Notes under the pieces: generated by a model | Told to the model about the DNA's origin: nothing | What the model saw: only the letters and a program-made list of their open reading frames with translations | The model's database searches: none | Made by a program: the position numbers and the translations under genes | NCBI GenBank assembly: GCA_045132235.1 | Contig: JBGURX010000026.1 | Span: forward strand, 18,175-82,174 | Source: Bacteroidales bacterium | Lineage (GTDB): Bacteria; Bacteroidota; Bacteroidia; Bacteroidales; WCHB1-69 | DNA: 64,000 nucleotides | Reading direction: 5' to 3' | Shown here: one piece after another, positions 6,212 to 39,750 of the stretch | Layout of the letters: the number at the start of each line of letters is the position of its first letter | Position numbering within the stretch: position 1 is the first letter of the stretch

Positions 6212-6765
6212 GGTTCGTCCACGAATGCCACGAATTTGTCGGCCTGGGCTTTCAGTGCGGCGCGTTGTTCGTTGGTGAGGATCATGCGGCCTTCGGTCCA
6301 TGCCTCGGCATTGAGGGTGATGCCCGTTTGCGGGTCGGTCATTACATTGGCTTTGATGAAGATGAGCAACTCGGTGAGTTTTTCGCGGCATTTGCCGGTG
6401 GCCATTTGTCCGCCTGCCCCGCTCAGTGCCACCTTCTTGCCGTTGATGACGGTAGGCGTGGCATAGTCGTTCGCGACAACGGGGCGCGACAGCCAGTCGA
6501 GCACGTTCTTCAGGTGACCGGGGTAGCTGAAGTTGTATTCGGGGGTGAAGATCCAGATGCCGTTGGCCTGGGCCACCGTTTCGCGCAGTTGGGTTACGGC
6601 TGCCGGGGCGGGATGCTCAATGTCCTGATTGATAAAGGGTACATTCGTGTAATTCAGATAGGTTACGGATGCCTGTCCAGCCAAGTATTTCTCTGCCTCT
6701 GCGGCGAGCTGTCGGTTGAAAGAATCTTTTCTCAACGAGCCGACGATAAAAAGGATGTTTTTCAT
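6208..6765 (-). CDS. NADPH-dependent FMN reductase family flavoprotein
   Basis: GSLRKDSFN, TPEYNFSYPGHLKNVLDWLSR. Confidence 0.9.
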   Translation of the reverse strand: MKNILFIVGSLRKDSFNRQLAAEAEKYLAGQASVTYLNYTNVPFINQDIEHPAPAAVTQLRETVAQANGIWIFTPEYNFSYPGHLKNVLDWLSRPVVANDYATPTVINGKKVALSGAGGQMATGKCREKLTELLIFIKANVMTDPQTGITLNAEAWTEGRMILTNEQRAALKAQADKFVAFVDEP

Positions 6766-6796
6766 ATTATATTATTTTTGATAGTTAAATTCTAAA

Positions 6797-7021
6797 TTAT
6801 TCCTCGGATTTGTCCTGTTGGGACGATTTCCTAATTTGTTCAAGCCCTTGGTCAAAGAACCAAAATAAAATGGTAATGATTACGCTGCCTACCACTCCTC
6901 CAATGATGGCTCTACGCAAACTGAGTCCCGAGATCAACCAATCTGCCAGAAAGTATGCCACAGCAAGGACGACAAACATGATGAGGTAAACCACCCAACT
7001 TCTTTTCTTAAAAATATTCAT
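6797..7021 (-). CDS. small membrane protein (2 TM)
   Basis: 74 aa with two hydrophobic helices; upstream TATTTTTG promoter. Confidence 0.65.
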   Translation of the reverse strand: MNIFKKRSWVVYLIMFVVLAVAYFLADWLISGLSLRRAIIGGVVGSVIITILFWFFDQGLEQIRKSSQQDKSEE

Positions 7022-7116
7022 AACAACTATTATTTATGGATTGCAAAAATACGGAATAATTCCGATGAATTTTGGCTACAACTGTGCAAAAATGATGAGT
7101 TATAGACAAAAATAAA

Positions 7117-7390: not shown

Positions 7391-7933
7391 TCAATGTGGA
7401 TTATATTGCACGTCGCCCCTCTCCAGCCGCATCACCCGCACCGGGCGGTCGGAGCCGATCTGGAGACGGCTGCAGCGGTTGATTGTGCCGGTGTCGCGGA
7501 AGCCGCACTTCTCCATCACGCGGCCGGAGGCGGGGTTGTCGGGGAAGTAGTCGCTCCAGATGGTGCGAAAGCCTTTCTGGTTGAAGCAGTAGTCGATCAG
7601 CAGCTGCAGTGCCTCGGTGCAGATGCCTTGGTTCCAGTAGGGGCGGGCCACCCAGTAGCCCGCTTCGGCATCGTTCTCGCCGATGTCGATGTTGCTCTCT
7701 CTGCAGGTGTAGTAGCCGATGCAGCCGATGGCCTCGCCGGTTGTCTTGAGCTCGATGGCCCAGATGTGGTCGCTGTGGAACACCGTGCGGATGATTTCGC
7801 GGCTCTCTTCCACGCTTTGGTGGGGCGGCCAGCCCGCGCGGAGACCCACCTCGGGGTCGGAAGCATATTGGTACAAGGTCTCGGCGTCGCTTTCACGCCA
7901 CGGCCGGAGCAGGATTCGGGAGGTTTGCATCAT
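7391..7933 (-). CDS. GNAT acetyltransferase, RimJ/RimL type
   Basis: T.RILLRPW..SDA, EAGYW...YWNQGI.TEA, NPASGRVMEKCGF. Confidence 0.92.
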   Translation of the reverse strand: MMQTSRILLRPWRESDAETLYQYASDPEVGLRAGWPPHQSVEESREIIRTVFHSDHIWAIELKTTGEAIGCIGYYTCRESNIDIGENDAEAGYWVARPYWNQGICTEALQLLIDYCFNQKGFRTIWSDYFPDNPASGRVMEKCGFRDTGTINRCSRLQIGSDRPVRVMRLERGDVQYNPH

Positions 7934-8061: not shown

Positions 8062-8093
8062 TTTGGCGGTTCAATTTCTTCGTTGTACTTTTG
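8062..8093 (+). promoter_or_regulatory. canonical Bacteroidota sigma-A promoter for the 8161-10448 operon
   Basis: TTTG-N20-TACTTTTG. Confidence 0.75.
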
Positions 8094-8160
8094 CAGTCGA
8101 AAGTTATTGATAATCAAATTATTATTTTATTAAATTATAAAACTATTAAAAATTAGAGTT

Positions 8161-8829
8161 ATGGAAAAACTGATTGAAATTTTGAAAGAATTTGACAAAA
8201 ACCGTACAGCATCAATTAACTTAGGGAAAATATGGGATGAAGTAGAGGTTGGAAAATGTTTTCTCCCTTGTGCAAAGGAAATTCTATGTAATGGATATTT
8301 TCTTATTAACAATGAATACATTCTTGACCTTGGTTCCATTGAACTCTATTATCACGAAGAATATGACGGCGGCATAAAAGACGCAAAAATGTACCACACA
8401 AATGATAATTTACCCAAAAGTTATTGGGATAGAATTAAAAAGTATTCCCCTGAACAACTAACTTTGTTTTACAGGCTTATTATTGAAAACAAGGGATACC
8501 CTTATTTCAAAATTGGCAGCGTCAACCTTCACCAATCTGGAGTTGATGTCACTTTTGAGAAGAAGAAGCAATACAGAGCATCTTTCCTCATTCGCTCATA
8601 CAGAATGATGAAAAAAGAGGATATTAAAAGCAATAATGTTTTGTACGATCCTTGTTCGTCTCACCTATATGACGATATGAATAATGCGGGACTATTGTCT
8701 TTGGCTAATGGAAACACAATCAAATGGGTGGAATATCCAAAGGGTGGAAATGTAATACAATGTCCTCGTCGGAATTTAGACGAAAAACCTTGGCAGTTTA
8801 TGCTTGAGAACTTGAAAGAGATTAAGTAA
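8161..8829 (+). CDS. hypothetical protein, possibly divergent methylpurine-DNA glycosylase (MPG/AAG) fold
   Basis: AT-rich 222-aa ORF; IELYY / D..MYH / ASFLIRS / PRRN..KPWQF match in order the MPG motifs ETEAY / D.A.H / AVLIRA / RIG..PWRF (by eye). Confidence 0.5.
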   Translation: MEKLIEILKEFDKNRTASINLGKIWDEVEVGKCFLPCAKEILCNGYFLINNEYILDLGSIELYYHEEYDGGIKDAKMYHTNDNLPKSYWDRIKKYSPEQLTLFYRLIIENKGYPYFKIGSVNLHQSGVDVTFEKKKQYRASFLIRSYRMMKKEDIKSNNVLYDPCSSHLYDDMNNAGLLSLANGNTIKWVEYPKGGNVIQCPRRNLDEKPWQFMLENLKEIK

Positions 8830-8845
8830 ACATCTTTTTTTTCTT

Positions 8846-9676
8846 ATGCTCCCCGACTCCCTCACCAACACCGTTTTCCTCTCCGAATGGCTGCCGGAAG
8901 TGTGCCCCACGCTGTATCATAATCTTACAAAAGTACTGAAGGACAATGCCGTGTACTATCGGATTCTGGGCAATACCAACGACATCTGGTGCCGCGATTT
9001 TATGCCCATTCAGACCGATGAAAAACGATTCGTTTTCTATCAATACAATCCTGATTACCTGCAAGACAAGCATAAACGGCGATACATTACCAACGTAAAC
9101 CGTGTGCAGAACATCGATTTCCTTCGTCAGGCCGAAACGGCAAATCTGGACCTAGTGCTCGATGGTGGCAACGTGGTGAAATGCGGCAACAAAGTGGTGA
9201 TGACGGAAAAGGTGTTTGTGGAAAACAACAACCGGTCGCGCAACGAGGTGCAACGACTTCTGGAAGAGGCATTCCAGTGCGACATCGTTTTCCTGCCGTG
9301 GGACGAGAACGAGAAGTGCGGTCACAGCGATGGCATTATCCATTATGTGGGCGACAACCGCGTGCTGCTGACCAACTACGACGATCTCGACAAGACTTTT
9401 GCGCAGGCATTTCTGCGGATTTTGGAAAAGCATTTTGAAGTTATCCCACTGAAATACAATGTGAAACGGCAGCACGCCCGCAGTTGGGCATACATCAACT
9501 ACTCGCAAGTGGACAATCTGGTGCTTGTCCCGCAGCTGGGCATTCCCGAGGATGAACATGCTTTGGAGCAAATCAGCAAAGCCCTGTCAAATTGTAAAGT
9601 CGTTGGCATCCCGGCCTTGGAAGCCGTTCGCAAAGGCGGAGCATTGAATTGCATATCGTGGAATATTAAATTGTAG
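8846..9676 (+). CDS. agmatine/peptidylarginine deiminase family (pentein) protein, short type
   Basis: WCRDF, LDGGN, GHSDG, YIN, GGALNCISW (catalytic Cys). Confidence 0.88.
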   Translation: MLPDSLTNTVFLSEWLPEVCPTLYHNLTKVLKDNAVYYRILGNTNDIWCRDFMPIQTDEKRFVFYQYNPDYLQDKHKRRYITNVNRVQNIDFLRQAETANLDLVLDGGNVVKCGNKVVMTEKVFVENNNRSRNEVQRLLEEAFQCDIVFLPWDENEKCGHSDGIIHYVGDNRVLLTNYDDLDKTFAQAFLRILEKHFEVIPLKYNVKRQHARSWAYINYSQVDNLVLVPQLGIPEDEHALEQISKALSNCKVVGIPALEAVRKGGALNCISWNIKL

Positions 9677-9680
9677 AAAG

Positions 9681-10448
9681 ATGGAAAGCAAAAAAACAAA
9701 GAACAACCTCTATTCGAAAATGACCATTAAAGAATTGAAAGTGCTGGCCGAACAAGGCGATGCAGAGGCACAATTCAAGCTTGGAAATCGTTATAAACAA
9801 GGTAAAGGTGTAGGAAAAAACTTTCGGCAGGCTGTGGAATGGCTCACTAAGGCAGCTGAGCAAGGACATTCAGGGGCTCAAAACAATCTTGGAGGATGCT
9901 ATTTGTGCGGAAAGGGAGTGAAAAAGGACTATGCCAAAGCTGTTGAATGGTACACTCAATCAGCGGAACAGGGTGAAATGTTCGCCCAATTCAATTTGGC
10001 TGCTTGTTATTATAAAGGAACAGGAGTTGAGCAAGACTATAAAAAGGCCCTGGAGTGGCATTTCAAAGCGGCTGAACAAGGCGATTCGTGGTCGCAAAAC
10101 GATATCGGAATGTGCTATTTGAATGGATATGGAGTTGAAAAAGACCTCCGGAAAGGCATTGAATGGCTTACCTTGTCTGCTAAACAAGGGTTTTCCACTG
10201 CACAATTCAACTTGGCTATTTGTTTCAAGGACGGTGATGGCGTGGAACAGGATATGAAGAAAGCGGTGGAATTATATAAAAAAGCAGCGAAGCAAGGGAA
10301 TATGTGGGCCCAACACAATTTAGGGTGTTGCTACGAATATGGGGAAGGCGTTAGAAGGAACCACAAAAAGGCGGTGGAATGGTTCACGAAAGCGGCGGAA
10401 CAAGGAAGCAAAAGGGCGAAAAGGATGCTCGGGAAATTTCACAAATAA
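9681..10448 (+). CDS. Sel1-like repeat protein
   Basis: Six 36-aa AQxNLGxCY..GxGVxxDxxKAVEWxxKAAEQG repeats; no signal peptide. Confidence 0.95.
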   Translation: MESKKTKNNLYSKMTIKELKVLAEQGDAEAQFKLGNRYKQGKGVGKNFRQAVEWLTKAAEQGHSGAQNNLGGCYLCGKGVKKDYAKAVEWYTQSAEQGEMFAQFNLAACYYKGTGVEQDYKKALEWHFKAAEQGDSWSQNDIGMCYLNGYGVEKDLRKGIEWLTLSAKQGFSTAQFNLAICFKDGDGVEQDMKKAVELYKKAAKQGNMWAQHNLGCCYEYGEGVRRNHKKAVEWFTKAAEQGSKRAKRMLGKFHK

Positions 10449-10636
10449 TTCACCACCCCGAACACACAGTGGCACACCGTGAAGCCGGCGGCCAGCACCA
10501 CGGCCGGCAGGTTCTTGCGGTCGATGGCAAAAAGGTTGAACGCCAAACAGGGCGGCAGGGTCAGCAGGAAAAGCAGCAGCCCCCAAAAGTCGAAGCCGAA
10601 ACGGTAGCGAGATGTGCGTATAGTATTCATTTTCAA
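10439..10636 (-). pseudogene. internally deleted membrane-protein gene (candidate)
   Basis: Only 65 aa; YRFGFDFWGLLLFLL appears joined directly to a LFAIDRKN...CH..FGVVN C-terminus that I recall from longer homologues. Confidence 0.45.
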
Positions 10637-10668
10637 ATAAATATCTGAGAAAACGATGCAAAATCCAG

Positions 10669-10707
10669 AAAATTATGCTAATAGAATTATTTTAGTAGCA
10701 TAATTTT
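10669..10707. promoter_or_regulatory. perfect 12-bp inverted repeat (operator or terminator)
   Basis: AAAATTATGCTA-N15-TAGCATAATTTT. Confidence 0.6.
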
Positions 10708-10737
10708 ATTGGTGGACTTTTTCCCCTGCACAATCAT

Positions 10738-11331
10738 TCATTCACCGTCATAGAAACAGTCCGTTTCCCATTTCATCGGATTCTGTTCAATGTATAGGGC
10801 AATTCTGTTCATTTCGTTCCTGTTCCTAACAATGCGGTCGTAATACCGCGGTTGCCATGAAAAGGGAATTTGGTTTTCCCGTGCGAAACGTGTGACAGCG
10901 GATTTAATCCCACGAATTACCGCCCCCAAATTCCCCGATTGTGGGCCAAATTTCTGTAGGGACGCACCGCGTGCGTCCGAATCCGAATCACCGCGTGCGT
11001 CCGAATCCGAATCACCGCGTGCGTCAGGAATTAACGGGGACGCATTCAATGCGTCCCTACAGGGGGATATTCGATTGTGAAGGCACACAATCAGATGCAC
11101 ATGATTGGGCATGATGACATACAAGGGGATTGACGCGGTACCGTGACGTAGGTTTTCTGTGTTTTCAATCTCGCGTTTCAAGCATTCCCCCACCAATGTC
11201 AATTGGGTCTGACCATTGCGAACAGTACCGAAATAATGCAGCCAGTTTTTCGTGCAAATGGTCACAAAATATTCTGCGCCGTTGTAGTCGTGCCATTGGG
11301 CCCGTGGAGATTTTCTGTCGTGTAGTTTCAT
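10738..11331 (-). mobile_element. REP-associated tyrosine transposase (RAYT, IS200/Y1 HUH family)
   Basis: RKSPR...DY...YFVTICT, VIMPNHVH (HUH), WQPRYYDRIVR, YIEQNP (catalytic Tyr); REPs inside and beside it. Confidence 0.92.
10954..11062. repeat. REP doublet (REPIN-like) with internal 24-bp tandem repeat inside the RAYT ORF
   Basis: CTGTAGGGACGCA...TGCGTCCCTACAG outer inverted repeat; CACCGCGTGCGTCCGAATCCGAAT x2.5 encoding DARGDSDS repeats. Confidence 0.88.
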
Positions 11332-11423
11332 AATAGTTGGTTTAGCAAAGATTAAATATCATTCATCTAATAGGTTTTTGTGAGATCGCCGTTTGTTGGG
11401 CAACCGTTTGTGGAATTGCCCTT

Positions 11424-11467
11424 GTAGGGCTGCCATATTATGACAGCCCTATATTGTGTACCCCTAC
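11424..11467. repeat. REP palindrome upstream of RAYT
   Basis: GTAGGGCTGCCATATTATGACAGCCCTAT followed by CCCCTAC; 26/29 identical to the inverted copy at 31992-32020. Confidence 0.8.
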
Positions 11468-12081
11468 AATGCGGCAACCCTACGCTGCAACCGCTCCAAA
11501 AACCTCGCCGCGTCGCCGCCGTCCATCTGCACGTGGTGGAACTGGAACGACACGGGCAGCGTGGCCTTGAACCACCTTTTGCGGTACTTGCCCCACATCA
11601 CCATCGGGTTGAGGAACTTGTCGGTGTATTGGTTCACCACGCAGTCGAGCTCGGTCTGGATCATGGCGGAGGTGCCGACAATCATGTAGCCGTCGAGGAA
11701 GCTGCTCTGGCACTCCTCCGCCACTCGGGTGGTCAGCGCCAGGTAGTCGCGGTTGAACTGCTGCAGGTCGGCAGAGAAGGGGATGTCGCATGAGTTGATG
11801 CCGCCCTTGCGGTTGCGCACCACCACGTTGATGGCTATCTGGTCGTAGCGGAACAGTTGGCCGCCCTCGGGCAGCAGGTATAGCTCCTCGGTTTCGGTGG
11901 CCGCCTTGCCGATGCACCAGCACATCAGCGTGTTGAACTTCACGCCGCTCTTCCGGCTGAGCCGCGCCAGACGGCTCACATCCATCGTTTTCACCAAGGT
12001 CACCATCGGCATCGGTGCATTCAGCCACATCTCGAAGGCTAATGCCCGCTTGGTCTCTTCAGGGTTGATTTGTTGTTTCAT
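11464..12081 (-). CDS. CatA-like O-acetyltransferase (chloramphenicol acetyltransferase fold)
   Basis: R..AFE.W...P.P.VT, WGKY....LPVS.QFHHVQMDG. Confidence 0.85.
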   Translation of the reverse strand: MKQQINPEETKRALAFEMWLNAPMPMVTLVKTMDVSRLARLSRKSGVKFNTLMCWCIGKAATETEELYLLPEGGQLFRYDQIAINVVVRNRKGGINSCDIPFSADLQQFNRDYLALTTRVAEECQSSFLDGYMIVGTSAMIQTELDCVVNQYTDKFLNPMVMWGKYRKRWFKATLPVSFQFHHVQMDGGDAARFLERLQRRVAAL

Positions 12082-14186: not shown

Positions 14187-15695
14187 TTATTCGTTTTCGA
14201 TTTTGGGTAAGAGGAACTGTTCTACCAGCTCCTTGATCCGTTCCTCCGTCAACTTCGAAGGTCCGGTTTCGGTTATCTCGTCGTGTTCCAGAGTGCCCTT
14301 GCGGATGATGTACTTCAACGCCTTGCCGTCGATGGTGGCAAGCAGGTGGTAGTTGCCCTTGAATTGCATCTCCACACGGGCATTTTCAATGCTGTGACCA
14401 GAAGCATCAACGTAGCCTGCTGCGACATCGGCTTCCCCCAGTCCCCATGCATTGAGGTTGTGAGCGAGCGTGTTCTCCACAGCGGAAATCCATCGTCCCA
14501 ACACACCATTCCGTTCGGCAATGGGACGAAATTCCGAAACAGCATCGGCCACTTCATGAATGATGCTTTCTGCCTTGCGGATCCCGTTCTCAGCGGCCAG
14601 TTCCCGGACATCCTCAAGTGTAATGCTCGTGTATTTCCCGTGAATCATCAGGCAATGCTGCGTTTCAGGGAGGAAACCGCCCGTGTTGAAAATGTAGGTC
14701 AAATCGTAAGCAGGGGAAAGCCGCCAGCGCCCCTGTTCATCCATGATGAACGAGAAGTTCTTGTAATGGTCGTCGGTGTTGTTGGCCAAAATGTTGAATG
14801 CCATGCGGCGGAAGACTTCTTCGCAGTCGAGTTCAGAGAGCCGCATCTTGCGGCACACCCACAGCAGGCGCTCGTAGCTGTCGGCTTCGGGATAGAGGGC
14901 GCCCAAGGTCTGAAGATGCAATTTCTTTTCACCGTCACGGTCGAACCTTTGGGTCACGAAATGACGTTCACCTTCAACATCCATCATCCAACACGGCATC
15001 ATTTTTATTCCCGCTTTCGTCGCCATTTCATAGTAGGTCATTTCGAGTTCGGCCGTTGAGCGCTCCTTGATGCCGAATTTCAGGATGCAGTAATCAAATC
15101 CTGTCAGTTCGCCCACCTGTCCGCTGCGGATTTCGCCTGTCTCTCGGTTAATGGCAATGATGGCTTTGGGCTGCCGTCCGCCCGCAGAGGTGCCGACCGC
15201 CATCAATGCCTGCATCGTGAGCGACTGGTCAGGGTCGATGTGCGCATTTTCGCGTTGCGTATAGATTTTGCCTGCCAGCTCAATCAAGGCTTTCAGATTG
15301 ATGTTTTCTTTGGATAAAAAGTTGGAGGTTTCGGGAAAGAATTCCAGTGCTCCCATTGCCCGCCTTCCGATGAACGCCAGCTTGTCGAGCGGGGTAATCT
15401 CTCCCACCTTGATGCCTTGCTGTCTCCGCCATTGCTCAAAGAGCTCGTTTCCCCAAGCATCGGGCAGAGAGTCGGCCAAAAACGGAGGCAGATTTTGGTA
15501 AATCTTCGCCGAAGCGCCATATATCGGTCGCAAGTTCTGCGGCAGTTTGATGGATGCGTCAAGCGGTGAGATGTCGAGGCCTGTTTCTATCCAGTCGCGG
15601 TTGTACTCAAAATAGGGTCGTTTCCGGCGTGGGTCGATGCTCAACCGTCCAACCTCACGGCCCCACAGCATTACTTTCAGTATTTGTGTAGTCAT
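14187..15695 (-). CDS. hipA: HipA family Ser/Thr kinase toxin with C-terminal extension
   Basis: DSLPDAWG, GTSAGGRQPKA, RFDR, NTDDHYKNFSF, LSPAYDL. Confidence 0.93.
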   Translation of the reverse strand: MTTQILKVMLWGREVGRLSIDPRRKRPYFEYNRDWIETGLDISPLDASIKLPQNLRPIYGASAKIYQNLPPFLADSLPDAWGNELFEQWRRQQGIKVGEITPLDKLAFIGRRAMGALEFFPETSNFLSKENINLKALIELAGKIYTQRENAHIDPDQSLTMQALMAVGTSAGGRQPKAIIAINRETGEIRSGQVGELTGFDYCILKFGIKERSTAELEMTYYEMATKAGIKMMPCWMMDVEGERHFVTQRFDRDGEKKLHLQTLGALYPEADSYERLLWVCRKMRLSELDCEEVFRRMAFNILANNTDDHYKNFSFIMDEQGRWRLSPAYDLTYIFNTGGFLPETQHCLMIHGKYTSITLEDVRELAAENGIRKAESIIHEVADAVSEFRPIAERNGVLGRWISAVENTLAHNLNAWGLGEADVAAGYVDASGHSIENARVEMQFKGNYHLLATIDGKALKYIIRKGTLEHDEITETGPSKLTEERIKELVEQFLLPKIENE

Positions 15696-15707
15696 GGCAG
15701 ATTGAAG

Positions 15708-16028
15708 TTATTTGGATTTGGAAGAAGTATGTCGAATGCGTTGGACTTTTTCCCCACTTTCTTTAACAAGATAGGGGGATTCAGGAAGTTCCGGCATCAT
15801 TTCATCAAGACTGTTGATGCAGCCGATGGCCTTCATCAGAAGCAGGAAAGTGCTGAGTGACAGATTCGGTACCCTGCCATTCTCAAATTTGTGGATGGTA
15901 TTCACCGTCAGTCCCGATTGCTCCGCCACCTCCTTCTGCGTCATATTGGAACGCATGCGGTAATCCTTAAAACGGCTGCCCAGCATTTTCACCAACTCAG
16001 GAATCGAATATTCGTAGTAGTCCGCCAT
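15708..16028 (-). CDS. XRE-family HTH antitoxin (HipB-like)
   Basis: MTQKEVAEQSGLTVNTIHKFENG; ends 12 nt upstream of hipA. Confidence 0.88.
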   Translation of the reverse strand: MADYYEYSIPELVKMLGSRFKDYRMRSNMTQKEVAEQSGLTVNTIHKFENGRVPNLSLSTFLLLMKAIGCINSLDEMMPELPESPYLVKESGEKVQRIRHTSSKSK

Positions 16029-17795: not shown

Positions 17796-19160
17796 TCATA
17801 TGGTTTCCAATTCAGGCAGGATTACGGAGTCCGTGCTATCTTTCTGAAGGAACATACAATAGTAAACAGGCATATATGTCACACCTTTCTTCCGTAGCAC
17901 ACTCCTTTCGTTGGAGAAGACAAGGGCGCGATCAATGCCATATTCCGGCGTATCAAGGAATTTTGTCAAGGCACTGTGTTCAGTGTAGTCTTTACCCGAC
18001 TTCACCTCTATCGGCAATACTTTCAAATGATTGTAATCGTCAATCAGAAAATCCACTTCGCCTTTCTGCTTGTTGTCATAATAATGGAGGTTGAATCCGT
18101 GGGCGTGCAACTCTTGTGCTACCACCGATTCATAAACCGTGCCTAGATTGATGCTTCTGAGATCTTGTAGCACAGCATTGACATTCAGACCATAAAGCAG
18201 ATTTGTCAAAATTCCGACATCGTTCAGGTAAAGTTTGACCAAGCGTTTTTGCTCCGATTCTACCAGAGGGAAGTGTGGGTTGCTGATGGCCAAGACCTCC
18301 AATGCCACTCCCGAATTTGACAAGTATTCAAATTCATCTGCATAATCTGTGAAATGCTTGCCGGTCTTATTTTCTATCTTTTTATAGACCATCCGCTTTT
18401 TTTTGTTTTCCAAGTTGCTCGGTATCAAATCATAAATGCGGCGGATTTTCAGTTTGTGCTCCTCATCGTATTGCGAAGCGTCGATACGGTAGAGTTCGTG
18501 AATGTTGTTGTGGATGCCTCGGACACGCACCATATTCCTGTCCTCCAAATAGGTATTGACTGCCTCTGGAAGCCCACCCACTAACAAGTAATACTGAAAA
18601 CGCTTCAACAAAAGATTGTGGGTGGCCTCATCAAGAGATTCTTCGCTTTGATAATGGTGACGGATATTCTCTATCCATTCTTTGTTGATGCCTGTCGCCC
18701 AAAGAAATTCCTCAAAATCAAGAGGATACATTTGCTTGATTTCTACACTGCCGATAGGCACAGATGGCGTTTGCGCCAAGGCTACTCCCAATTGTGAACC
18801 ACTGGCAATAAAACGGTATCGCCCCTCCTGACAAAGAAATTTAAGCATCGTCAGGAGGTGCGGATAGCTCTGTATTTCATCCAAAAAGACCAATGTGTCG
18901 GATTTGTCTCCCAGGGGCTTTGAGTAATAGTTGCTCAAGCGCATATACAAATCGGTAGTCGAATGTACGGTTGAGAACACTCGTTCTCCCTCTTTGTCCT
19001 CTTTGAGATTGATTTCCACAAAATGGTCAAACAACCGGTTGCCCACATAACGGATCAGATAGGATTTTCCAACCTGTCTTGCCCCATTTACCAACAGAAT
19101 TTTATTGTTCTCTTCTCGGAGAAACTGCTCAAGGTATTGAGTGAATTTGCGTTCCAGCAT
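17796..19160 (-). CDS. AAA+ ATPase (AAA_14) with DUF4143 PD-(D/E)XK-like C-terminus
   Basis: GARQVGKS, FLDEIQ, MYPLDFEEFL, GGLPE, KLYLNDVG, GEVDF..PIEVKSG. Confidence 0.9.
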   Translation of the reverse strand: MLERKFTQYLEQFLREENNKILLVNGARQVGKSYLIRYVGNRLFDHFVEINLKEDKEGERVFSTVHSTTDLYMRLSNYYSKPLGDKSDTLVFLDEIQSYPHLLTMLKFLCQEGRYRFIASGSQLGVALAQTPSVPIGSVEIKQMYPLDFEEFLWATGINKEWIENIRHHYQSEESLDEATHNLLLKRFQYYLLVGGLPEAVNTYLEDRNMVRVRGIHNNIHELYRIDASQYDEEHKLKIRRIYDLIPSNLENKKKRMVYKKIENKTGKHFTDYADEFEYLSNSGVALEVLAISNPHFPLVESEQKRLVKLYLNDVGILTNLLYGLNVNAVLQDLRSINLGTVYESVVAQELHAHGFNLHYYDNKQKGEVDFLIDDYNHLKVLPIEVKSGKDYTEHSALTKFLDTPEYGIDRALVFSNERSVLRKKGVTYMPVYYCMFLQKDSTDSVILPELETI

Positions 19161-38496: not shown

Positions 38497-39750
38497 ATGG
38501 CACAAGAGAAGATACCCGTCCGTCTGTTTTCCGAAATTGGTCGATTGAACGCCGTGCTGCTGCACACTCCCGGTCCCGAGATAGAGGCCATGACTCCGGA
38601 GAACGCTTCGGAGGCTCTTTACAGTGACATTCTGAATCATAACATTGTGACGGATGAGTACCGCTACTTCCGTGGCGTGTTCGAGAAATGCACCCGTGCC
38701 TATCAGGTCCGCGATCTGCTGGCGGAGGTGCTGTCCGACCCTGCGGTGGCCGAGCCGCTGGTGCGCCAGAGCTGTGCCATCGACGGCTGCGGCTTCCTTG
38801 CCGACGAGCTGCTGGATCATACTCCCGAAGTGTTGGCCGGCGAGCTGATTGAGGGCTTCCGCTATCGTGCCGGCGTGGATCCCCGTGAGTTCGAGCAGGG
38901 GCGTTTTCTGCTGAAACCGCTGTACAACCTCTTCTTCACCCGTGATGCTTCTTCGTGTGTGCACGACCGCGCCCTTATCCATACGATGGCCTTCCAGGTG
39001 CGCAAGCGCGAGTCGCTGATTTATCGCGCCATCTTCGAAAACTTCTTCGGGGCGCCGGTATATTGTGCGCAGGATGCCTGTCCGACCGCCCGTACCGAAG
39101 GCGGAGACGTGCAGATTGTGCGCGATGACCTGCTCTGCGTGGGCAACGGCATCCGCACCAACCGCGAGGGCATCGACTACCTCATGCAGGCACACGCCCA
39201 CAAGGGAAAATTCGCCATCATCGCGCAGCAACTGCCCCACCATCCCGAGTCGTTCATCCACCTCGACATGGTGTTCACCTTCCTCGGCCCCCATACCTGC
39301 ATGGCCTATGAACCGCTGCTGCGCAAGAGCGGCATCTTCAGCGGGATGGCTACCACGTTGATTACCAGCGACAACGGCAAGGTCTCTTGCCGCGAGTATC
39401 CCGATATCCTGAAGGCTCTGCAGTCACAGGGCGTTGATTTGGAACCGGTGATCTGCGGCGGCACCGACGAATGGATGCAGCAGCGTGAACAGTGGCACAG
39501 CGGAGCCAACTTCTTCGCATTGGGCGAGGATCATGTTATTGGCTATCGCCGCAACAGCCACACCATCGAGGCACTCGACAGGGCCGGTTTCACCATTATG
39601 AAGGCTGAGGATGTAGTGGACCGCGGTGTCAATCCGTTCGACTACCAGAAGTGTGTGGTCACCTTTGCCGCTTCGGAACTTCCGCGCGGCGGCGGCGGCG
39701 CCCGCTGCATGACCTGCCCCATCAACCGTGAGGACACCTGCTACCAGTAA
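38497..39750 (+). CDS. arcA: arginine deiminase
   Basis: SEIGRL..VLLH.PG.E, NLFFTRD, EGGD, HLD, EQW..GAN, ELPRGGGGARCMTCP. Confidence 0.92.
   Translation: MAQEKIPVRLFSEIGRLNAVLLHTPGPEIEAMTPENASEALYSDILNHNIVTDEYRYFRGVFEKCTRAYQVRDLLAEVLSDPAVAEPLVRQSCAIDGCGFLADELLDHTPEVLAGELIEGFRYRAGVDPREFEQGRFLLKPLYNLFFTRDASSCVHDRALIHTMAFQVRKRESLIYRAIFENFFGAPVYCAQDACPTARTEGGDVQIVRDDLLCVGNGIRTNREGIDYLMQAHAHKGKFAIIAQQLPHHPESFIHLDMVFTFLGPHTCMAYEPLLRKSGIFSGMATTLITSDNGKVSCREYPDILKALQSQGVDLEPVICGGTDEWMQQREQWHSGANFFALGEDHVIGYRRNSHTIEALDRAGFTIMKAEDVVDRGVNPFDYQKCVVTFAASELPRGGGGARCMTCPINREDTCYQ

Follow-up and report, generated by a model that had tools for sequence, protein, structure and literature searches.

A mobile, pentein-centred gene cassette of Bacteroidota with exchangeable DNA-attacking partners: a candidate defence or conflict module

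A three-gene locus in a Bacteroidales genome

This report concerns three co-directional genes on contig JBGURX010000026.1 of a Bacteroidales bacterium (assembly GCA_045132235.1), situated in a stretch of 64,000 nucleotides (nt) that was analysed as a whole and is called the window here. The genes encode a putative, very divergent relative of the AAG/MPG glycosylases (open reading frame 1, ORF1), a pentein hydrolase (ORF2) and a Sel1-repeat protein (ORF3); coordinates are given in Table 1. Together they make up a self-contained, horizontally mobile cassette that belongs to a wider family of pentein-centred cassettes in Bacteroidota. The constant part of this family is a catalytically intact pentein, often with Sel1 repeats; the exchangeable part is a DNA-attacking enzyme.

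The intergenic gaps are 16 nt (ORF1/ORF2) and 4 nt (ORF2/ORF3), and the genes on either side, a GNAT gene and a Y1_Tnp-like ORF, are oppositely oriented. An earlier reading made from the letters alone (the sequence-only reading) had described this layout of three tightly spaced genes facing against their neighbours, together with an AT-rich first gene, and both descriptions hold: the G+C content is 0.347 in ORF1, 0.496 in ORF2, 0.44 in ORF3, 0.22 in the upstream spacer and 0.514 in the window. The promoter that the same reading called canonical stands in part. Sequence TTTG-N20-TACTTTTG upstream of ORF1 is one of two perfect matches to the pattern TTTG-N19-21-TAnnTTTG in the window (the consensus of the Bacteroides promoter literature); shuffled sequences had 0.52 matches on average and, since 10 of 100 shuffles had two or more, the match is statistically suggestive, not strong. 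A scan for sigma-70 promoters and terminators produced 8 sigma-70 sites with 6.0 ± 2.3 expected, a number not above chance. In a congener that carries a different partner gene, conservation is 92% over the promoter segment together with the initial ∼25 nt of ORF1. Two short contigs of RNA run X1 (95–99% alike) cover positions 9913-10413, inside ORF3 only.

Table 1. Features of the cassette and its surroundings in the window
Feature	Position	Strand	Description
ORF1	8161-8829	+	222 residues; divergent AAG/MPG-superfamily protein by model, putative base-excision enzyme, 'A1 type'
ORF2	8846-9676	+	276 residues; compact PAD_porph-family pentein hydrolase
ORF3	9681-10448	+	255 residues; Sel1-repeat protein, 6 repeats, cytoplasmic
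Bacteroidetes-type promoter candidate	8062-8093	+	−33 TTTG, 20 nt spacer, −7 TACTTTTG
Variable segment	7065-10664	.	small membrane ORF, GNAT gene and three-gene cassette
GNAT gene	7391-7933	-	inside the variable segment
Repeats	10560-10710		∼90-145 bp; on many contigs of the same genome and genus
Y1_Tnp/IS200-like ORF	10738-11331	-	weak match; internal 'ARGDSDSD' tandem repeat
Repeats	11422-11454		∼30 bp; on many contigs of the same genome and genus
Chloramphenicol-acetyltransferase-like gene	11464-12081	-	just outside the variable segment; conserved in congeners
HipA-like kinase (HipA_C + Couple_hipA) and adjacent HTH_3	14190-16028	-	HipBA-type pair, ∼4 kb from the cassette
AAA_14-DUF4143 ATPase gene	17799-19160	-
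Arginine deiminase	38497-39747		PF02274

ORF1 is predicted to have the AAG fold

By sequence ORF1 is an orphan of the family databases: it has no Pfam or NCBIfam match at E ≤ 0.1 and does not reach the gathering score of PF02245 (AAG/MPG). Searches of PDB sequences with ORF1, with the profile of its family (A1) and with the profile of a second type of AAG-like protein described below (type 2, profile A4) gave no meaningful match, and in PHROGs all matches of ORF1, as well as of ORF2, were below threshold. The family of ORF1 has 348 representatives among 1.84 billion proteins; among 524 candidates, 320 clusters were found at E ≤ 1e-3, all unnamed or 'hypothetical', and from Bacteroidales where named. 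In the ESM Atlas the nearest named cluster is MPG (0.80), which is a lead and no more.

Comparison of structures was more informative. An AlphaFold2 model of ORF1 computed from a 33-sequence alignment has a predicted local distance difference test (pLDDT) value of 92.6. The top eight Foldseek matches of this model are all human AAG (probability 0.84–0.99), and exhaustive VIA alignment with 1ewn_A yields Z 10.6 (root-mean-square deviation 3.6 over 147 residues), with the next fold at 4.6; both searches point to AAG, not UDG. The model thus places ORF1 in the AAG fold (a curved mixed β-sheet, FMT-C-like), the fold for which a check of this gene had been suggested earlier. Profile alignment by hhalign connects the families in two steps: A4 aligns with A1 (95.2%, P 2.5e-8) and with MPG (65%, P 6e-5, about 145 columns), while control alignments of unrelated families have P values of 0.16–0.53.

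Residues E61 and Y63 of the ORF1 motif 'IELYY' align with the catalytic Glu and Tyr of MPG 'TETEAY', Glu125/Tyr127 in human AAG. R145 (in LIR145) aligns with 'LIRA' of MPG, and PR203...W211 with 'PRIGI...WRF'. All five residues (E61, Y63, R145, R203 and W211) are invariant among the 33 sequences of the ORF1 family. The sequence-only reading had listed MPG-like motifs in order, including the Glu of IELYY, and the fold and profile comparisons agree with it. We regard ORF1 as a very divergent, putative base-excision enzyme with the catalytic Glu retained.

ORF2 is a complete compact pentein and ORF3 a Sel1-repeat protein

Penteins are Cys/His/Asp hydrolases acting on guanidino or amidino groups. 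ORF2 scores 92.1 bits against PF04371 (PAD_porph, cut-off 25), and its AlphaFold2 model (pLDDT 96.1) aligns by VIA with agmatine deiminase 2ewo at Z 27.4 (269 of 276 residues); agmatine deiminases also give 27.0 and 26.2, and PPAD of Porphyromonas (5ak7) gives 26.8. Because the structural alignments with solved penteins span 254–269 of the 276 residues, ORF2 is a complete pentein with trimmed loops rather than a fragment. The Asp/His/Cys motifs noticed earlier are conserved in full: D51, H160, D162, N218 and C269 are invariant in 35 relatives, and both guanidinium-binding Asp residues of agmatine/peptidyl-arginine deiminases are kept.

The same genome encodes two further penteins, the arginine deiminase of Table 1 and a second PAD_porph protein (genome G000, contig C42; locus L105, 1234-3033). 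The latter, of 599 residues, is PPAD-like, with a signal peptide and a C-terminal tail of the type IX secretion system (T9SS) type.

ORF3 matches PF08238 (Sel1) with 244.6 bits over six stretches, and inspection by eye revealed no signal peptide. The protein may act as a sensor or scaffold, as the sequence-only reading supposed. Co-folding of ORF1, ORF2 and ORF3 with ORF1 as the partner gave a score of 0.00, which has no bearing on binding. The only PADLOC-DB 2.0 matches of ORF3 are to PtuA models, in the N-terminus, where these bear repeats.

Linkage and fusion of the cassette genes

We sampled 38 species-representative loci that encode a relative of ORF1. At 33 of them a pentein gene lies on the same strand beside the ORF1 homologue, and in 26 of these 33 the two genes overlap or are separated by no more than 42 nt. 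In four loci the pair is separated by a gap of ∼400 nt, probably filled by a small ORF of ∼115 residues, and in two a Sel1 gene lies between them. The ORF1 homologue comes first in 26 loci and the pentein in seven. Among the five loci that lack a pentein, three (L027, L036 and L037) are cut by contig ends and two (L018 and L033) are genuine. Sel1 repeats are encoded by a separate gene at 12 of the 33 linked loci, are fused to the pentein at eight and were unseen at 13. Clustering of the 386 called genes revealed no other neighbour family in more than four of the 38 loci.

The co-occurrence of the glycosylase-like and deiminase genes, proposed for testing when only this locus had been read, therefore extends to 33 of 38 loci, and it goes as far as covalent fusion. 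An A1 domain is joined to a pentein in L082 (496 residues) and in P0215 (487 residues, PAD_porph), and a type-2 AAG-like domain in L104 (514 residues). One A1 domain, in P0244, is fused to a PD-(D/E)XK nuclease (PDDEXK_4).

Further genes and domains accompany some members of the family. In the database proteins P0154, P0146 and P0121, ORF1-type domains are fused to an RlaP nucleotidyltransferase, to SMEK_N and to an unidentified C-terminal domain of ∼300 residues. An acidic conserved ORF of ∼115 residues with no known family lies between partner and pentein in L067 (1145-1495), L098 (2468-2812), L099 (1005-1349) and L101 (6566-∼6900), and it probably fills the ∼400-nt gaps in L003, L005, L011 and L019; the pentein of Prevotella plasmid pE2-28 has it as an N-terminal fusion. 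In one subtype of the cassette, a DUF6642 gene directly precedes the ORF1-like gene on its 5′ side: L064 (7402-7980), L073 (306-884) and L074 (2939-3517). The DUF6642 score is 53 bits in L064 and in L073, the assignment in L074 is by position and length only, and L064 also has a weak CHAT-like similarity. One member of this subtype lies on an IMG/VR contig.

The partner of the pentein is exchangeable

The gene beside the pentein was classed at 29 loci. Nine have a partner of the A1 type (one being the 496-residue fusion in L082) and ten a type-2 AAG-like partner, in which E-x-E-x-Y, G-x-D, LIR and a later Arg (R144) are invariant. At six loci the partner is a PacI-like HNH nuclease (A5), the profile of which matches 3ldy_A with E 8e-11. 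A single locus has a TIGR04274-like DNA-deoxyinosine glycosylase of UDG type (E 6.4e-13; 49 bits, where the cut-off is 80) and another single locus a DUF6508 gene; in two (L084 and L097) the class remained unassigned. The hidden Markov model (HMM) of A4 picks up A1-type proteins too, 32 of the 37 that were clustered. Since the alternatives at this position are glycosylases of two folds and PacI-like nucleases, DNA is indicated as the target.

Partner replacement has occurred repeatedly. On a maximum-likelihood tree of the penteins (35 rows, with the label of L084 taken from its identical twin L006), the partner labels require nine changes, while the minimum is four; each of the four HNH rows arises on its own from within AAG-like rows, as the well-supported branches require, and counts as a separate change. 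Exchange is also visible within the genus. In two congeners ORF2 has 93% and 76% identity to the protein described here, and ORF3 has 94% in both; the partner genes upstream encode other proteins, which are type-2 AAG-like and not significantly similar to ORF1. At the DNA level, among the matches listed (32 rows lie outside this list), only one 72-nt piece of ORF1 matches any relative.

Distribution and mobility

A pentein like ORF2 is present in 46 of 401 sampled Bacteroidales genomes and in 37 of 237 genera. In genome G041, which belongs to the same genus, the sequences corresponding to window positions 6762-7064 and 10665-10707 are only 96 bp apart, compared with 3.6 kb here; the variable segment of Table 1 is replaced by these 96 bp.

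Pentein cassettes were found on several kinds of mobile DNA. One is located on a Prevotella plasmid near genes for an S24 peptidase, a Y-family polymerase and a RecD-like helicase. On two Flammeovirga plasmids the cassettes adjoin Rep/ParA/ParB and come with an RNase_T-like exonuclease and a PacI-like HNH gene (A5 HMM, E 3.7e-20). Another cassette shares a conjugative-type contig with a TraG coupling protein, and a copy in an integrative element, on an IMG/VR contig, adjoins a Mob_Pre relaxase, DUF5906 and a tyrosine integrase.

Several phages of Bacteroides thetaiotaomicron (DAC16, DAC19, DAC20, DAC22, DAC23 and SJC03) match ORF2, of which DAC16 alone was looked into (L108, 4848-6528). Its pentein is of the long form (350 residues, PAD_porph) and the HNH gene next to it adjoins the portal gene, as packaging HNH genes do; on these grounds the pair was not counted as a member of the family.

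Genes in the neighbourhood

The 145 neighbours scanned with Pfam at 22 loci (L001–L022) include scattered accessory genes: ORF6N, AAA_14-DUF4143, Fic/PIN, YhcG and Schlafen-AlbA2. Genes of the AAA_14-DUF4143 ATPase occur near the cassettes in the window, in L003 (8997-10178), L016 (11393-12586) and L067 (3225-4562), and in congener G045 such a gene is directly 3′ of the Sel1 gene. HipA genes accompany the cassette not only in the window but also on a Flammeovirga plasmid. The two sets of repeats downstream of the cassette, together with the Y1_Tnp/IS200-like ORF, look like REP-type repeats with a RAYT-like gene.

Comparison with known systems

We found no described system that this combination matches. 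Full-text literature searches returned no paper in which a pentein or deiminase is linked with glycosylases, with HNH nucleases or with defence against phages (the supplementary tables of the Dag and Brig papers being outside the scope), and none on DUF6642 or DUF6508. A term search of the DefensePredictor paper (PMC13092281) found no mention of a deiminase.

ORF1 shares its predicted fold and collinear motifs with AAG/MPG (PF02245) but has no PF02245 match, and the position of the wedge Tyr of canonical MPG appears to be variable in it; its family has invariants of its own (E66, E67, K73, D74, S126, G127, D129, T131, F132, E133, D163, S166, H168 and D172), and the gene is accessory, AT-rich and linked to a pentein. 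ORF2 has the complete fold and the invariant Asp/His/Asp/Asn/Cys set of AguA and PPAD (PF04371). It differs from them in being about 60–90 residues shorter than solved agmatine deiminases, in being cytoplasmic, unlike the secreted T9SS PPAD-like protein of its own genome, and in lying beside, or being fused to, DNA-acting enzymes instead of polyamine genes. PacI, a type II restriction endonuclease of the HNH class (PDB 3ldy), has homologues that serve as pentein partners in the six loci mentioned above and on the Flammeovirga plasmids. There is no PacI-like gene in this window, and in the cassettes that have one the pentein stands in the place of the methyltransferase, with no methyltransferase alongside.

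Glycosylases with a role in defence have been described from the UDG and HhH superfamilies (Brig1–3 and Dag). Brig3-BapA is an operon of an anti-phage glycosylase and a base-modifying enzyme; Brig3 belongs to the UDG superfamily though its shape is AAG-like, BapA is a glucose hydrolase, and Brig3 defends alone (bioRxiv 10.64898/2026.02.25.707755). Compared by description only, the two-gene logic proposed here is alike: a DNA glycosylase shares an operon with an enzyme that alters the target chemically and so lets the glycosylase act; the partner here is a pentein, however, and it is the pentein that is constant and the glycosylase that is exchangeable. A homology of ORF1 with Brig3 was considered and dropped, given the UDG assignment of Brig3 in that paper. 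The Dag glycosylases, directed against 7-deazaguanine phages, are all HhH or UDG-like single genes (bioRxiv 10.1101/2025.10.29.685425). Like ORF1, they are small, highly divergent, AT-rich and horizontally moving, and are detected by fold rather than by sequence; unlike it, they are described as single genes with neither an AAG fold nor a pentein.

Discussion

It is very probable that the genes of the cassette are functionally coupled. Four results argue that they act together on nucleic acid in a setting of conflict: the genes are closely linked, have fused independently, have repeatedly exchanged one DNA-attacking partner for another and travel on mobile elements. We lean, if only slightly, towards the view that the cassette is an undescribed DNA-targeting defence or conflict module. 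Its most likely function would be defence against phages or plasmids, and it may serve as an addiction module as well. The pentein would hydrolyse a guanidino or amidino group. This group could belong to a base of the invader DNA or to a DNA-associated protein recruited via Sel1, and its hydrolysis would expose or create the substrate of the partner enzyme. In the case of ORF1, the partner may flip out and excise a purine-type base with a water molecule activated by Glu61, leaving abasic sites that would stop replication. The defensive role, this order of action and the substrates are what we infer; the modelled folds, the catalytic residues, the linkage, the fusions, the exchange of partners and the mobility are what the analysis shows.

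As to the chemistry, the full active site of agmatine/peptidyl-arginine deiminases and the frequent presence of Sel1 speak for a terminal guanidino group as substrate, which a protein may carry. The fact that two unrelated hypoxanthine-type glycosylase folds serve as partners keeps deimination of a base alive. We consider it improbable that the pentein is a nucleic-acid deiminase, with its Cys nucleophile attacking the amidine/guanidine carbon of a purine in the DNA of an invader. The attacked base could then be adenine, guanine, 2-aminoadenine or formamidino-deazaguanine, converted to a hypoxanthine- or xanthine-type base; the partner would remove the deaminated base or cut beside it, and Sel1 would be the sensor of infection. 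The pentein fold is not known to modify nucleic acids. Were this route real, base deamination by a pentein would be the prokaryotic counterpart of the vertebrate APOBEC-UNG route.

A number of observations weigh against a DNA-targeting defence module. At the sequence level, direct evidence for a link between ORF1 and MPG is weak: hhalign aligns A1 with canonical MPG collinearly but with a probability of only 3.7% (P 0.011), HMMER comparison of canonical MPG with the partner proteins shows no similarity in either direction, and an MPG profile built from 25 canonical Bacteroidota MPGs detects none of them, so the assignment rests on the fold match and the two-step profile chain. For the segment of the wedge Tyr (Y-x-Y-x-x-Y-G), a low-confidence extension of the hhalign alignment places the variable I118 at the Tyr and YPYF(113-116) opposite YVYF; the substrate of ORF1 may therefore not be duplex DNA. 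The two guanidinium-binding Asp residues of ORF2 fit a terminal guanidino group, as in arginine or agmatine, at least as well as a nucleobase. Intact-motif ORF1-like genes exist without a pentein in L018 and L033, and Sel1 is missing from view at over a third of the linked loci (13 of 33). Several of the loci come from related rumen metagenome-assembled genomes, and L007 and L008 are the same sequence, so that the locus counts overstate independence. In PADLOC-DB 2.0, ORF1 and ORF2 match no model at E ≤ 1, and the 145 neighbours are mostly housekeeping genes with no clear defence signal, for which reason we dropped the defence-island argument. The sequence-only reading had inferred a defence or DNA-processing system and proposed enrichment near defence genes as a check. 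The predicted AAG fold, the catalytic Glu, the linkage and the DNA-attacking partners speak for the former; a clear defence neighbourhood, like a PADLOC match for ORF1 or ORF2, was not found.

Among the alternatives, an ordinary metabolic role has the least to offer. ORF2 would be an agmatine deiminase of putrescine synthesis with unrelated neighbours, as could be concluded from agmatine deiminases being the closest solved structures and from RefSeq, where plasmid homologues of ORF2 bear the name 'agmatine deiminase family protein' and a GO term for putrescine biosynthesis. Scores against the AguA equivalogs TIGR03380 and NF010070 are, however, 56.1 and 58.1 bits with cut-offs of 381.8 and 483, no polyamine gene (aguB, speA) was found among the window genes or the 145 neighbours, and linkage and fusion to DNA enzymes are conserved. 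The earlier doubts about an ordinary AguA, founded on the missing polyamine-pathway neighbours, were well placed. We find this role scarcely credible, and the RefSeq annotation is probably wrong for the ORF2 subfamily. A repair module is also quite improbable in our judgement: the pentein would process a class of lesions (guanidino-bearing oxidised guanines or deaminated purines) and the glycosylase would remove them. Going by their family names, enzymes of the AAG/MPG and TIGR04274 types belong to the classical glycosylases that repair hypoxanthine-type lesions, and the S24 peptidase, polymerase and helicase genes beside the Prevotella plasmid copy would suit such a function. Yet the genome already encodes a canonical MPG elsewhere (205 bits), and a cassette that is patchy (46 of 401 genomes), variable within a genus, mobile, low in G+C and open to HNH substitution is unlike housekeeping repair.

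More attention is due to two explanations that share the conflict setting. The DNA-damaging partner could be the toxin of a toxin–antitoxin pair, with the pentein and Sel1 as an antidote or regulator that works enzymatically (the toxin or a factor of the host might be citrullinated), so that loss of the element kills the cell. The position beside Rep/ParA/ParB on two Flammeovirga plasmids is a usual place of addiction modules; homologues of the PacI-like nuclease are paired with a pentein where a methyltransferase would be expected; mix-and-match partners are typical of toxin–antitoxin families; and HipA-HTH and Fic/PIN genes occur nearby in some loci. On the other side, a near-identical pentein (93%) serves unrelated partners in one genus, which is hard to reconcile with specific recognition of a toxin protein; intact ORF1-like genes have no pentein in L018 and L033; and 'toxin' and 'antidote' are covalently fused in L082, L104 and P0215. 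We hold this explanation to be unlikely, although the least so of the alternatives. The other explanation, the specific form of the sequence-only reading, which we rate as rather unlikely, supposes that the cassette targets amidino- or guanidino-modified phage purines such as deoxyarchaeosine (dG+): the pentein would turn the formamidino group into an amide, and the AAG-like enzyme would excise either the product or the modified base. Penteins act on such groups and the catalytic set of ORF2 is complete, the AAG fold deals with purine lesions, the Dag1/2 defence glycosylases against 7-deazaguanine phages exist, and in BapA-Brig3 there is a precedent for an enzyme of the same operon that prepares a modified base for the glycosylase. 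Against this, no result here ties the cassette to 7-deazaguanine chemistry or to amidino-modified purines, and the reported Dag enzymes are all HhH or UDG-like, none AAG. The frequent fusion with Sel1 suggests a protein ligand, an arginine of a protein recruited by Sel1 being equally possible as substrate, and the repeated swap to PacI-like HNH nucleases fits poorly with recognition of a single modified base.

The preferred reading, a DNA-targeting defence or conflict module, would have several consequences. If the role is real, penteins would join prokaryotic immunity as a new enzyme superfamily, in modules with a constant deiminase and interchangeable DNA-attacking partners, and AAG would be the third fold of immune glycosylases beside UDG and HhH. 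The cassette would also test how general the remodelling of a target by a dedicated enzyme is, as in BapA-Brig3. The substrate of the pentein, be it a base, a protein bound to DNA or a metabolite, is a question that biochemistry can address cleanly. The cassette is abundant in rumen and gut Bacteroidales, bacteria whose defence repertoires are poorly charted.

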